A stretch of 64,000 nucleotides of DNA. Origin: Escherichia coli (GTDB lineage: Bacteria > Pseudomonadota > Gammaproteobacteria > Enterobacterales > Enterobacteriaceae). This document shows, in pieces, positions 19,338-37,189 of this stretch; within the stretch, counting starts at the first letter, position 1, and each line of letters starts with the position of its first letter. The stretch is from the NCBI RefSeq assembly GCF_003334335.1, contig NZ_QOWQ01000005.1. The stretch is one strand, 5' to 3'. The notes under the pieces were generated by a model, which was not told the origin of the DNA, ran no database searches, and saw only the letters and a list, made by a program, of their open reading frames with translations. The position numbers and the translations under genes were made by a program.

Positions 19338-20827
19338 AACGCCCCAATTTTCTGTTCGTCATGACCGATACCCAGGCCACCAATATGGTCGGTTGCTATA
19401 GCGGTAAACCGCTGAATACGCAAAATATTGATAGTCTGGCGGCGGAAGGTATTCGCTTTAATTCCGCCTACACCTGTTCACCGGTTTGTACGCCTGCACG
19501 GGCCGGACTATTTACCGGTATCTACGCTAACCAGTCCGGCCCGTGGACCAACAACGTCGCGCCAGGCAAAAACATCTCCACTATGGGGCGCTACTTTAAG
19601 GATGCCGGCTATCACACCTGTTACATCGGCAAATGGCATCTCGACGGTCATGACTATTTCGGCACTGGCGAGTGTCCGCCGGAGTGGGACGCTGATTACT
19701 GGTTCGATGGGGCGAACTATCTTAGCGAACTGACGGAAAAAGAGATTAGCCTGTGGCGCAATGGCCTAAACAGCGTCGAAGATTTACAGGCGAACCATAT
19801 CGACGAAACCTTCACCTGGGCGCATCGTATCAGCAATCGGGCGGTGGATTTTCTGCAACAGCCTGCGCGCGCAGACGAGCCTTTCCTGATGGTGGTTTCG
19901 TATGATGAGCCGCATCACCCGTTCACCTGTCCGGTGGAGTATTTAGAGAAATACGCTGATTTTTACTACGAGCTGGGCGAGAAAGCACAGGATGACCTGG
20001 CTAACAAACCGGAACATCACCGCTTATGGGCGCAGGCGATGCCATCGCCAGTCGGTGATGACGGGCTTTATCACCATCCGCTCTATTTTGCCTGTAATGA
20101 CTTTGTTGATGACCAAATCGGACGGGTCATCAATGCCTTAACGCCAGAGCAACGTGAAAATACGTGGGTTATTTATACCTCCGATCACGGCGAAATGATG
20201 GGCGCACATAAGCTGATCAGTAAAGGGGCGGCGATGTATGACGACATCACCCGCATTCCGCTGATCATCCGTTCGCCGCAAGGGGAGCGGCGACAGGTCG
20301 ATACGCCAGTCAGTCATATCGATTTACTGCCGACAATGATGGCGCTGGCAGATATTGAAAAACCAGAGATTCTGCCGGGGGAAAATATCCTTGCCGTGAA
20401 AGAGCCACGCGGCGTGATGGTGGAATTTAACCGCTACGAGATTGAGCATGACAGCTTTGGCGGTTTTATTCCGGTGCGTTGCTGGGTGACGGATGACTTT
20501 AAACTGGTACTCAACCTCTTCACCAGTGATGAACTTTACGATCGCCGTAATGACCCAAATGAAATGCATAACCTGATCGATGATATCCGTTTTGCAGACG
20601 TTCGCAGCAAAATGCATGACGCCTTATTGGATTACATGGACAAAATTCGCGATCCGTTCCGCAGTTACCAATGGAGTCTGCGTCCGTGGCGTAAAGATGC
20701 ACGGCCGCGCTGGATGGGGGCGTTTCGTCCACGTCCACAAGATGGCTATTCGCCAGTTGTACGCGACTATGACACCGGCCTACCGACACAAGGGGTGAAG
20801 GTGGAGGAGAAAAAACAGAAGTTCTGA
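19334..20827 (+). CDS. yidJ: Cys/Ser-type sulfatase YidJ
   Basis: 497 aa; sulfatase signature CSPVCTPARAGLFTG near the N-terminus. Confidence 0.9.
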   Translation: MKRPNFLFVMTDTQATNMVGCYSGKPLNTQNIDSLAAEGIRFNSAYTCSPVCTPARAGLFTGIYANQSGPWTNNVAPGKNISTMGRYFKDAGYHTCYIGKWHLDGHDYFGTGECPPEWDADYWFDGANYLSELTEKEISLWRNGLNSVEDLQANHIDETFTWAHRISNRAVDFLQQPARADEPFLMVVSYDEPHHPFTCPVEYLEKYADFYYELGEKAQDDLANKPEHHRLWAQAMPSPVGDDGLYHHPLYFACNDFVDDQIGRVINALTPEQRENTWVIYTSDHGEMMGAHKLISKGAAMYDDITRIPLIIRSPQGERRQVDTPVSHIDLLPTMMALADIEKPEILPGENILAVKEPRGVMVEFNRYEIEHDSFGGFIPVRCWVTDDFKLVLNLFTSDELYDRRNDPNEMHNLIDDIRFADVRSKMHDALLDYMDKIRDPFRSYQWSLRPWRKDARPRWMGAFRPRPQDGYSPVVRDYDTGLPTQGVKVEEKKQKF

Positions 20828-24044: not shown

Positions 24045-24077
24045 TATAAAAGGGGAGCGGTTTCCCGCTCCCCTTTG
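24045..24077 (-). terminator. Rho-independent terminator of tisAB
   Basis: ggggagcgg/ccgctcccc stem; on the minus strand it is followed by a U-rich tract directly downstream of tisB. Confidence 0.5.
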
Positions 24078-33948: not shown

Positions 33949-35283
33949 ATGAATAATGACAATACCGATTACGTGAGTAATGAATCAGGGACGCTTTCGC
34001 GATTATTTAAACTACCTCAGCATGGGACCACCGTCCGCACAGAATTGATTGCGGGGATGACCACTTTTTTAACCATGGTGTACATCGTTTTTGTGAACCC
34101 GCAAATCCTCGGCGCGGCACAAATGGACCCGAAAGTGGTGTTTGTTACCACCTGTTTGATTGCCGGTATCGGCAGTATTGCGATGGGGATATTTGCTAAC
34201 TTACCCGTGGCGCTGGCTCCGGCAATGGGGCTGAACGCCTTCTTTGCCTTCGTGGTCGTGGGGGCGATGGGCATCTCCTGGCAGACCGGGATGGGCGCAA
34301 TATTCTGGGGCGCAGTTGGACTATTTTTGCTCACGCTGTTTCGTATCCGGTACTGGATGATCTCCAACATTCCCTTAAGTTTACGTATTGGTATCACCAG
34401 CGGAATTGGATTATTTATCGCCTTAATGGGATTAAAAAATACTGGCGTTATTGTCGCCAATAAAGACACGCTGGTGATGATTGGCGATTTAAGTTCTCAC
34501 GGCGTGTTGTTAGGTATTTTAGGGTTTTTTATTATAACCGTGTTGTCATCACGTCATTTTCATGCCGCGGTGCTGGTTTCTATTGTGGTGACGTCTTGCT
34601 GTGGATTATTTTTCGGTGATGTTCATTTTAGCGGCGTCTATTCCATTCCGCCTGATATTAGCGGCGTCATTGGTGAAGTAGATTTGAGCGGCGCGTTAAC
34701 ACTTGAACTCGCCGGTATCATTTTCTCCTTTATGCTGATCAACCTATTTGATTCATCAGGAACATTAATTGGTGTAACTGATAAAGCGGGCTTAATAGAT
34801 GGTAACGGTAAATTCCCCAATATGAATAAGGCGCTGTATGTTGATAGCGTCAGTTCGGTGGCGGGTGCGTTTATCGGCACCTCGTCTGTTACTGCCTATA
34901 TTGAAAGTACTTCTGGTGTGGCAGTCGGTGGCCGCACGGGGCTGACTGCGGTTGTGGTTGGCGTTATGTTCCTGTTGGTTATGTTCTTCTCACCGCTGGT
35001 GGCGATAGTTCCTCCTTACGCAACCGCCGGAGCGTTAATCTTTGTTGGCGTGCTGATGACTTCGAGCCTGGCGCGCGTTAACTGGGATGATTTTACCGAA
35101 TCGGTGCCTGCGTTTATTACCACGGTGATGATGCCCTTTACTTTCTCGATCACCGAAGGGATTGCACTCGGCTTTATGTCGTACTGCATCATGAAAGTAT
35201 GCACCGGGCGCTGGCGCGATCTGAACCTGTGTGTGGTGGTGGTCGCAGCTCTGTTTGCACTGAAGATTATTCTGGTGGATTAG
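33949..35283 (+). CDS. adeP: Adenine permease (NCS2/AzgA family)
   Basis: ORF 33871..35283; start ambiguous between 33937 (MDKK) and 33949 (MNNDN). Confidence 0.8.
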   Translation: MNNDNTDYVSNESGTLSRLFKLPQHGTTVRTELIAGMTTFLTMVYIVFVNPQILGAAQMDPKVVFVTTCLIAGIGSIAMGIFANLPVALAPAMGLNAFFAFVVVGAMGISWQTGMGAIFWGAVGLFLLTLFRIRYWMISNIPLSLRIGITSGIGLFIALMGLKNTGVIVANKDTLVMIGDLSSHGVLLGILGFFIITVLSSRHFHAAVLVSIVVTSCCGLFFGDVHFSGVYSIPPDISGVIGEVDLSGALTLELAGIIFSFMLINLFDSSGTLIGVTDKAGLIDGNGKFPNMNKALYVDSVSSVAGAFIGTSSVTAYIESTSGVAVGGRTGLTAVVVGVMFLLVMFFSPLVAIVPPYATAGALIFVGVLMTSSLARVNWDDFTESVPAFITTVMMPFTFSITEGIALGFMSYCIMKVCTGRWRDLNLCVVVVAALFALKIILVD

Positions 35284-35335
35284 TAACTGGCGAGGGTTTC
35301 CAGATATCATGAGTTCTGATTACGCAGGAGAACTC

Positions 35336-35788
35336 ATGATCTGGATAATGCTCGCCACGCTGGCGGTAGTGTTTGTGGTTGGTTTTCGGGTGCTGACATC
35401 CGGGGCCAGAAAAGCGATTCGCCGTCTCAGCGATCGGCTGAACATCGATGTCGTACCCGTGGAGTCGATGGTCGATCAAATGGGAAAGTCAGCTGGTGAC
35501 GAATTTTTACGTTATTTGCATCGTCCGGATGAGTCGCACCTGCAAAACGCCGCGCAGGTGTTGCTCATCTGGCAAATTGTCATTGTCGATGGTAGCGAAC
35601 AGAACCTGCTGCAATGGCATCGGATTTTACAAAAAGCTCGCCTCGCCGCGCCGATTACCGACGCTCAGGTCAGGCTGGCGCTAGGTTTTCTGCGCGAAAC
35701 CGAACCTGAAATGCAGGATATTAATGCTTTTCAGATGCGCTATAACGCGTTCTTTCAGCCTGCCGAGGGCGTTCACTGGTTGCATTGA
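35336..35788 (+). CDS. yicN: DUF1198 protein YicN
   Basis: Start at MIWIMLATL (150 aa) with SD aggag 7 nt upstream; N-terminal TM helix. Confidence 0.8.
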   Translation: MIWIMLATLAVVFVVGFRVLTSGARKAIRRLSDRLNIDVVPVESMVDQMGKSAGDEFLRYLHRPDESHLQNAAQVLLIWQIVIVDGSEQNLLQWHRILQKARLAAPITDAQVRLALGFLRETEPEMQDINAFQMRYNAFFQPAEGVHWLH

Positions 35789-35794
35789 AACCGT

Positions 35795-35866
35795 TTCGTC
35801 TTATCAGCCTACAGACCGCGCCTGACCTGTCGGGTGGATAAGACGTTCACGCCGCATCCGGTAATC
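35795..35866. repeat. REP/BIME element
   Basis: cgtcttatcagcctacag and ggataagacgttcacgccgcatccgg. Confidence 0.5.
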
Positions 35867-35998
35867 TTTGCCCTGTTCCGTTTCGATCTTAACTCCAGCT
35901 CAAGCAACACCGTAAAAGTTGCAAAAACGTTAAATGCGTCACACATTTCAATGTTAAAGTGGTCGGCTTTTCCCCTGAAACATGCCACGGGTAACACC

Positions 35999-37189
35999 AT
36001 GAGTGAATTTATTGCCGAAAACCGCGGCGCGGATGCCATCACCCGACCGAACTGGTCAGCCGTTTTCTCGGTGGCGTTTTGTGTCGCCTGTCTGATTATC
36101 GTTGAGTTTTTGCCCGTCAGTTTGTTGACGCCAATGGCCCAGGATTTAGGCATTTCGGAAGGGGTTGCCGGGCAATCGGTGACCGTGACCGCCTTTGTGG
36201 CAATGTTTGCCAGTTTGTTTATTACCCAGACAATTCAGGCTACTGACCGCCGCTACGTTGTTATTTTGTTTGCCGTTTTGCTGACGCTCTCCTGCTTGCT
36301 GGTTTCCTTTGCTAACTCATTCAGTTTGCTTTTAATCGGTCGTGCCTGTCTGGGGCTGGCGCTGGGCGGGTTCTGGGCGATGTCGGCGTCGCTGACCATG
36401 CGTCTGGTGCCGCCGCGTACGGTGCCGAAGGCGCTGTCGGTGATCTTCGGCGCGGTTTCTATTGCGCTGGTGATTGCCGCGCCGTTGGGCAGTTTTTTAG
36501 GCGAGCTTATCGGTTGGCGCAATGTCTTTAATGCGGCGGCGGTGATGGGCGTGCTGTGTATTTTCTGGATTATCAAATCATTGCCTTCACTGCCAGGCGA
36601 ACCCTCGCATCAGAAACAAAATACTTTCCGCTTATTACAACGTCCGGGTGTGATGGCAGGGATGATCGCCATCTTCATGTCTTTCGCCGGGCAGTTTGCT
36701 TTCTTCACGTATATTCGCCCGGTGTATATGAACCTGGCGGGATTCGGCGTGGATGGCTTAACGCTGGTGCTGTTGAGTTTTGGTATCGCCAGCTTTATTG
36801 GTACGTCGCTTTCGTCGTTCATTCTTAAACGTTCGGTAAAACTGGCCTTAGCAGGCGCGCCGTTAATACTGGCTGTGAGTGCGTTGGTACTGACGTTGTG
36901 GGGAAGCGATAAAATCGTTGCTACCGGCGTGGCGATTATCTGGGGGCTAACTTTTGCATTGGTTCCCGTCGGCTGGTCAACGTGGATCACCCGCTCGCTG
37001 GCCGATCAGGCAGAAAAAGCCGGGTCTATTCAGGTGGCGGTTATTCAGCTTGCTAATACCTGTGGCGCGGCAATCGGCGGTTATGCGCTGGATAATATTG
37101 GTCTGACTTCGCCGTTGATGTTGTCCGGCACATTGATGTTGCTGACTGCATTGTTGGTTACTGCAAAGGTGAAAATGAAGAAATCCTGA
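35999..37189 (+). CDS. nepI: Purine ribonucleoside efflux pump NepI (MFS)
   Basis: Start at [10 protein letters not shown] (396 aa). Confidence 0.85.

Follow-up and report, generated by a model that had tools for sequence, protein, structure and literature searches.

A 27-bp hairpin over the yicN start codon at the adeQ-yicN junction of Escherichia coli, tentatively read as fold-back inhibition of read-through transcripts

Why does the start codon of yicN in Escherichia coli lie in one arm of a long inverted repeat whose other arm overlaps a putative promoter of the same gene, and could this arrangement decide which transcripts are translated into YicN? The window (the whole stretch of 64,000 nt that was analysed) is E. 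coli K-12-like, and a position w in it corresponds to 3877738 - w on the minus strand of MG1655 (NC_000913.3). The gene upstream of yicN is adeQ (yicO), which an earlier sequence-only reading had misnamed adeP, and the two genes are separated by a spacer of 52 nt; the inverted repeat lies inside this spacer and the start of yicN (Table 1). The yicN start proposed in that reading, ATG 35336, is confirmed by the annotation and by homologues from 13 genera, which all begin with M-I/V-W at this point and thereby identify 35336 as the genuine start. Its product, YicN, has been described as a membrane protein with a single span that co-purifies with SecYEG (PMC8082313). Codon 4 of the gene (35345–35347) is the rare isoleucine codon ATA, which lies in the right arm, where AUAAU pairs with GUU-U, and which is retained in Escherichia, Citrobacter, Enterobacter and relatives. 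The in-frame ATG that had been pointed out at 35309 in the left arm is also present. As a candidate for the true start it was rejected: it is ATA in Escherichia sp. MOD1-EC7003, has no Shine-Dalgarno sequence at a usable distance and, in Enterobacter-type loci, either is not in frame or runs into a stop codon; the 159-aa open reading frame called from it should not be used.

The repeat is perfect, as had been claimed, and slightly larger than described: ATCATGAGTTCT (35306–35317) and AGAACTCATGAT (35329–35340) form 12 rather than 11 bp around a loop of 11 nt (35318–35328) rather than 10, and the right arm agaactcatga, which had been placed at 35328–35338, is actually found at 35329–35339. The Shine-Dalgarno sequence, expected in or next to the loop, indeed straddles the loop and the right arm. 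On its own, this 35-nt hairpin has a predicted folding energy of -15.3 kcal/mol (z = -5.0). Folding of 35284–35365 yields a single hairpin, 35288–35357, with 27 pairs and -39.9 kcal/mol (z = -7.45); none of 200 shuffles was as stable, and the hairpin ranks in about the top 0.1% of 15,980 80-nt windows taken from both strands of the 64-kb window. Its helices, UGGCGAG:CUCGCCA, GUU:AAU, UCCAGA:UCUGGA and then the 11–12-bp tip, are interrupted by a 1x1 internal loop and by two bulges, of 1 nt and 2 nt, and the structure begins 5 nt past the adeQ stop codon. The stem of the sequence-only reading thus stands in so far as the start codon is predicted to be sequestered, but the repeat is only the tip of the 27-bp hairpin. 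Perfect 12-bp inverted repeats (loop 3–30) occur at four loci of the 64-kb window, against 0.21 expected from Markov-1 simulations.

A stable hairpin past a stop codon resembles Rho-independent terminators and REP elements; unlike these, the hairpin at hand has no U-tract, is present in a single copy and shows neither a REP consensus nor an Rfam match, a search of Rfam 15 at the site having returned nothing even at E <= 10. Of 5,426 complete E. coli genomes, 5,402 contain the sequence, each at a single site, and membership in REP/BIME or another intergenic repeat family was rejected on the basis of the single copy and the lacking REP consensus.

Table 1. Features of the adeQ-yicN junction and the 86-mers used for comparison (positions in the window).
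Feature	Position	Strand	Remarks
adeQ coding 86-mer	35150–35235		identical in 40.4% of genomes
adeQ (yicO) stop codon TAG	35281–35283	+	
Outer stem, 5' arm UGGCGAG	35288–35294	+	partner 35351–35357; E. coli and closest relative only
Middle stem, 5' arm GUUUCCAGA	35296–35304	+	partners 35347–35349 and 35340–35345; promoter spacer; its TTTnCC block is kept in all genera
-10-like hexamer TATCAT	35305–35310	+	about 31 nt upstream of the ATG; left arm of the repeat
5' arm of the 12-bp repeat	35306–35317	+	contains non-conserved in-frame ATG 35309
Predicted yicN transcription start	35317–35319	+	putative, about 7 nt past the -10 hexamer, in the loop; MG1655 3842421–3842419, minus strand
11-nt loop GAUUACGCAGG	35318–35328	+	holds the first three Shine-Dalgarno bases
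Shine-Dalgarno sequence AGGAG	35326–35330	+	5 nt before the ATG; straddles loop and right arm
3' arm of the 12-bp repeat	35329–35340	+	contains the yicN start codon, 35336–35338
yicN CDS	35336–35788	+	150 aa, DUF1198/PF06711
3' arm of middle and outer stems	35340–35357	+	yicN codons 2–8 (AUC UGG AUA AUG CUC GCC A)
yicN coding 86-mer	35400–35485		identical in 60.8% of genomes
yicN-nepI spacer 86-mer	35800–35885		identical in 58.5% of genomes

For comparison, 80 yicN loci (L001–L080) were retrieved from Enterobacteriaceae. Only in Escherichia, the Citrobacter amalonaticus group, one further Citrobacter and some Kluyvera is yicN preceded by adeQ; in the other loci this place is taken by uhpT, by a divergent LysR-type gene or by others. 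Whatever the upstream gene, the hexamer TATNAT is found 29–37 nt upstream of the yicN ATG in 72 of 81 sequences, and over 69 distinct sequences its positions 1, 2, 3, 5 and 6 are invariant, with C (27), G (39) or T (3) at the unconstrained position 4, the profile of a sigma70 -10 element. Outside the adeQ context the hexamer has a partner, TCGACA/TTGACG, 15–16 nt upstream, and the conserved TCGACA-N15/16-TATNAT block looks like a sigma70-like promoter of yicN. Judged by a -10 profile and a -35 element at 15–18 nt, sigma70 promoter features are found across the family, and the E. coli sequence shows the -10 element only. Two nucleotides bulged from the hairpin, T35305 and A35306, are the first two positions of this hexamer, where T and A are the most critical bases of a -10 element; owing to their bulged position, pairing does not account for their invariance. 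The hexamer and its flanks are unchanged in 16 of 16 adeQ-adjacent sequences. Moreover, a block of the form aTTTcCCng-TATNAT-GnGC (35296–35314 in the window) is kept in the 69 distinct sequences, including genera without the hairpin (TTT 90–100%, CC 78–91%, G after the hexamer 96%). With a divergent LysR-type gene in many of these genera, the promoter may overlap a binding site for a regulator. Sigma32, sigma28, sigmaE and sigma54 were rejected for this block, the spacings being a misfit when compared by eye with the consensus sequences. Two further observations concern the same region: in Enterobacter and Leclercia, 4–5-bp repeats (CCGCT/AGCGG, CCGA/TCGG) surround the hexamer, and on the minus strand a promoter-like TCGCCA-16-AATAAT (35293–35266), matching at 9 of 12 positions, is directed antisense into the adeQ 3' end. 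The number of such sites is that of chance (1 found, 1.1 expected).

The predicted effect of the hairpin on initiation is severe. In read-through RNA, including the end of adeQ, the AUG (35336–35338) is unpaired with a probability of 0.002, and freeing positions -15 to +19 costs 33.6 kcal/mol, as opposed to 6–8 kcal/mol in RNA starting at 35317–35321. The start codon and part of the Shine-Dalgarno sequence are thus predicted to be held in a stable duplex with RNA upstream of them, as in fold-back inhibition. As the left arm is the -10 box and the predicted transcription start lies in the loop, this fold would be open only to transcripts entering from adeQ. The hairpin had previously been considered a translation-control or processing hairpin, and the former view holds with regard to the sequestered AUG and part of the Shine-Dalgarno sequence but not for mRNA from the yicN promoter, which, given the predicted start in the loop, would lack the left arm, a circumstance that the sequence-only reading had itself named as refuting its proposal.

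We tentatively favour the reading that the hairpin serves in fold-back inhibition of adeQ read-through transcripts, in the manner of IS10 and IS50. RNA entering yicN from adeQ would fold into the 27-bp hairpin and lock the ribosome-binding region, so that adeQ transcripts would yield no YicN. Without ribosomes, this RNA would be exposed to decay or to termination by Rho, and adeQ would thereby gain a boundary although it has no intrinsic terminator. Transcripts from the yicN promoter would begin in the loop, without the 5' arm, and would be translatable. A terminator scan flagged no intrinsic terminator in the adeQ-yicN gap. In IS10 and IS50, RNA initiated outside the element alone forms the hairpin and is translationally silent, and the native transcript starts between the arms. 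The yicN start codon and ribosome-binding site are likewise predicted to pair with a segment upstream of the predicted transcription start of the gene. In contrast to the insertion sequences, adeQ and yicN are a pair of chromosomal genes outside any mobile element, their stem, at 27 bp, is longer, the native start of yicN is deduced from a motif and the native promoter has lost its -35 element. Fold-back inhibition of the transposase genes of IS10/Tn10 and IS50/Tn5 was reportedly described by Davis, Simons and Kleckner in 1985 and by Schulz and Reznikoff in 1991.

The main rival is the view taken in the sequence-only reading, that of a constitutive attenuator. Here, yicN would be mostly co-transcribed with adeQ and the hairpin would be contained in essentially all yicN mRNA, keeping YicN synthesis very low or dependent on opening of the structure by adeQ translation, RNase cleavage or a trans factor. 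We regard this as a serious possibility, albeit an unlikely one. It draws on the lack of a good -35 element in E. coli, where the best match, TAGTAA at a spacing of 18 nt, agrees in 3 of 6 positions and counts against fold-back inhibition. In adeQ-adjacent lineages the end of adeQ has taken the place of the -35 element, so that the yicN promoter may be weak or dead in E. coli; if it were dead, the hairpin would sit in every yicN mRNA. The left arm of a further locus, that of Escherichia sp. ESNIH1 (L040), likewise overwrote its -35 region, and the gap to adeQ is merely 52 nt and has no terminator. The constitutive attenuator is also in line with the transcription start tables of Kim 2012, in which no entry for yicN or yicO was found. 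A wider set of published transcript-end tables (Cappable-seq, Rend-seq annotation, the 3'-end mapping of Adams et al., SMRT-Cappable-seq, ROSE, a 3'-seq meta-analysis, a nanopore study and Kim 2012), searched by gene names and by MG1655 coordinates in both versions, yielded no 5' end, 3' end or read-through RNA for adeQ-yicN. This counts against fold-back inhibition, these tables being incomplete and their silence not equal to absence. Full-text literature searches on yicN, yicO and adeQ turned up nothing on their transcription.

A precedent for such an attenuator is IS200, where a stem-loop in the 5' UTR of tnpA sequesters the Shine-Dalgarno sequence and lowers 30S binding (PMC4513863). This stem-loop belongs to the native 5' UTR and represses all transcripts, with a separate terminator stopping impinging transcription (PMC4513863). 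Like it, the yicN hairpin is a cis-acting stem-loop burying translation start signals, and the IS200 arrangement matches the constitutive attenuator rather than fold-back inhibition. What speaks against an attenuator in all yicN mRNA is the strength of the hairpin itself: an opening cost of 33.6 kcal/mol would nearly abolish translation, yet YicN was recovered with SecYEG (PMC8082313), and the existence of the protein in E. coli means that some yicN mRNA must escape the 34-kcal/mol block, which also favours fold-back inhibition. Likewise at odds with the attenuator, all 16 adeQ-adjacent sequences keep the -10 hexamer and the bases around it unchanged, down to the two bulged nucleotides on which pairing places no constraint.

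Opening by adeQ translation can be considered separately. In translational coupling, as at the MS2 coat-replicase junction, the masking segment lies inside the upstream open reading frame and is opened by its translation. The yicN start resembles such cases in being masked by upstream RNA at a tight gene junction and differs from them in that the 5' arm lies past the adeQ stop codon. A ribosome terminating at this stop would cover roughly the sequence to 35296 and melt only the outer stem. It would reach 7–9 of the 27 pairs and the remainder would still fold at about -32 kcal/mol, which argues against the attenuator and against a classical translational-coupling device alike.

Within E. coli, the hairpin is exceptionally uniform: the 86-mer 35280–35365 is identical in 95.9% of 5,402 genomes (compare the neighbouring 86-mers in Table 1). 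The rare variants inspected all preserve pairing on the sense strand, being too few for a statistical test. C35335T in strain C5 turns a G-C into a G-U pair, C35308T in LD67-1 and S1-IND-02-A turns C-G into U-G and TATCAT into TATTAT, and the double change G35311A + C35335T in MOD1-EC7003 replaces G-C by A-U with loss of the upstream ATG. The double-mutant stem of MOD1-EC7003 was absent from the complete E. coli genomes, among which only the single G-U intermediate of strain C5 was found. Of 16 relatives, 11 have a sense strand that is more stably folded than its antisense counterpart. The uniformity of the 86-mer, the pair-preserving variants and this strand bias all count in favour of fold-back inhibition.

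Beyond E. coli, the distribution of the hairpin is narrow. Strong hairpins of -39 to -41 kcal/mol (z -5.8 to -8.9) are found in the window, L007 and L001, that is, in E. coli and its closest relative, and other Escherichia species reach -20 to -26 kcal/mol (z -1.2 to -3.1). Several results of this comparison count against fold-back inhibition: other adeQ-adjacent lineages have weak hairpins (z -0.8 to -3, and -0.8 to -2.4 in adeQ-adjacent genera other than Escherichia), L041 reaches a z of about -2.5 to -3 with a divergent upstream gene, and L017 and L079 have close co-oriented open reading frames and no hairpin. The same applies to covariation, with two double changes in 31 pairs and 11 pairs invariant. 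Neither the 18-nt core GTTTCCAGATATCATGAG nor its partner CTCATGATCTGGATAAT varies among the 16 adeQ-adjacent sequences, and a core that is invariant on both sides is uninformative for covariation. In nearly all remaining genera z stays within about +/-1.7. A structured cis-regulatory RNA conserved across genera was rejected, with z about 0 outside the adeQ-adjacent group and double changes in 2 of 31 pairs.

A z below -5 is reached only where a co-oriented gene ends at most 65 nt upstream without a terminator, namely in E. coli and MOD1-EC7003 (adeQ, 52 nt) and in ESNIH1 (65 nt). In ESNIH1 (PQKR01000005.1, 2936–3035) the upstream gene is a co-oriented 338-aa gene other than adeQ, no terminator separates it from yicN, and an independent hairpin of unrelated sequence, with -40.6 kcal/mol (z about -5.5), masks the yicN start. 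The relatives of this locus have longer spacers with terminators and no hairpin. Taken together with E. coli, this pattern is consistent with the device having evolved repeatedly where genes abut closely with no terminator between them. The left arm in ESNIH1, GCGTCGCC-GCGTT, is the reverse complement of the gene's own codons 5–9 in 13 of 14 nt, which hints at an origin by templated inverted copying. In E. coli, the flanks of the left arm have changed from GATAAGYG to GGCGAGGG and from TGYC to TTCT, and every change adds pairs.

Templated mutation could have produced both strong hairpins with no selection involved, which counts against fold-back inhibition, and a second rival takes this to be the whole explanation. 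Under it, the junction is a neutral quasi-palindrome produced by template switching, in which the pre-existing TCATGA motifs of the -10 and start regions seeded inverted copying of the coding start into the spacer and the product has no function. The self-complementarity of TCATGA, by which some repeat is to be expected, agrees with this proposal, as do the copied arm of ESNIH1 and, in E. coli, TGGCGAG as the reverse complement of CTCGCCA with 4–5 clustered changes relative to the sister species. We nevertheless consider it a doubtful explanation. The segment is far more invariant in E. coli than its neighbours (95.9% versus 40–61%), the G.G mismatch, the G-U pair and the bulge beside the copied patch misfit a single clean copy, and strong hairpins occur only in a tight co-oriented context although the seed repeat is present in about 25 other lineages. 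Furthermore, a templated origin is compatible with later selection. A fuller version of the fold-back reading would include just this: the hairpin would have arisen by inverted templated copying of the first codons of yicN into its own promoter, independently in E. coli and ESNIH1 and each time after a co-oriented gene had come to abut without a terminator, and would provide promoter-specific translation, with Rho ending the upstream transcript, as a terminator-free boundary. This combined account is speculative and on the whole unlikely.

Traces of the adeQ junction were also observed where these genes are missing. In L010, L011 and L076, the last bases of adeQ (tggattag / ggatggg) and an adeQ-type spacer are located ~50–60 nt upstream of yicN, and ade and adeQ are absent, which suggests that ade-adeQ was deleted in these lineages; their hairpins are moderately stable (z -1.7 to -3.7). 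YicN variants from metagenomes contributed only spacers of the E. albertii, C. freundii and Enterobacter types and nothing new.

A third rival assigns the hairpin to the adeQ mRNA, either as a processing site for RNase III or as a 3' stem-loop protecting against exonucleases after Rho-dependent termination. In its favour, adeQ has no terminator of its own and the hairpin starts 5 nt past its stop codon. The RNase III stems of the lambda N leader and of the rnc and pnp leaders are long, slightly imperfect duplexes of more than 20 bp. The adeQ-yicN duplex is similarly long, slightly imperfect and intercistronic, and its 27 bp amount to the approximately two helical turns of an RNase III substrate and suffice for the enzyme. 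Unlike in those leaders, the duplex includes the yicN start codon, so that cutting it would turn the downstream gene off instead of on; the yicN mRNA would be destroyed, which again amounts to silencing of read-through RNA. Term-seq tables, which are incomplete, list no 3' end in 3841–3843 kb, and yicN goes unmentioned in the accessible text of the RNase III target paper; a full-text search likewise turned up no paper that names yicN in connection with RNase III. A role in adeQ mRNA processing or stability is a decidedly doubtful alternative.

Function at the DNA level, as the operator of a dimeric regulator or as a cruciform, appears very improbable. A perfect 12-bp dyad does overlap the promoter, many genera have a LysR-type gene that diverges from yicN, and the conserved TTTnCC block in the spacer is otherwise unexplained. 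Bulged arms of 27 bp around an 11-bp gap are nevertheless atypical of operators, and other species lack the dyad but retain the promoter block. Natural variants, moreover, preserve G-U pairs, whose pairing counts in sense-strand RNA alone, and the E. coli locus has no LysR-type gene. An intrinsic terminator of adeQ is hardly tenable despite the strong hairpin directly past the stop codon, as the tail reads CGCUGGCGG in place of a U-tract, the terminator scan did not flag the site and the 11-nt loop and moderate G+C are atypical, in agreement with what had been concluded from the missing U-tract alone.

To our knowledge, the fold-back trick has so far been textbook material only for transposases. 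On the favoured reading, the adeQ-yicN hairpin is a familiar type of device at a new location. If confirmed, fold-back inhibition at this junction would represent an ordinary chromosomal gene insulating its translation from the transcription of its neighbour by means of a promoter folded onto the start codon, and would show how genes can regain their boundaries once a rearrangement has taken away a terminator and a -35 element. In practice, adeQ-yicN RNA levels would be no guide to the expression of yicN in E. coli, and yicN constructs placed behind an upstream promoter with the native spacer would probably be silent. The reach of the finding is limited by YicN being an uncharacterised, SecYEG-associated protein.

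Some other structures in the window deserve mention. A small terminator-like hairpin, CGCCA-CGC-UGGCG (35352–35366), followed by the U-rich GUAGUGUUUGUGG, overlaps the outer right arm and may represent an alternative fold once the outer stem is open; the U-richness may merely reflect transmembrane codons of YicN. The other perfect 12-bp repeats are located at 166–194, 24049–24076 and 19497–19545. With their short loops and A/T-rich flanks (AAAAGGGCGGAG... and AAAGGGGAGCGG...), the first two resemble bidirectional terminators, and the third consists of CACGGGCCGGAC with a gap of 25 nt. Finally, two adjacent 80-nt windows inside nepI (36345–36488, plus strand) fold at -44.1 and -41.7 kcal/mol and are among the most stable of the whole window.
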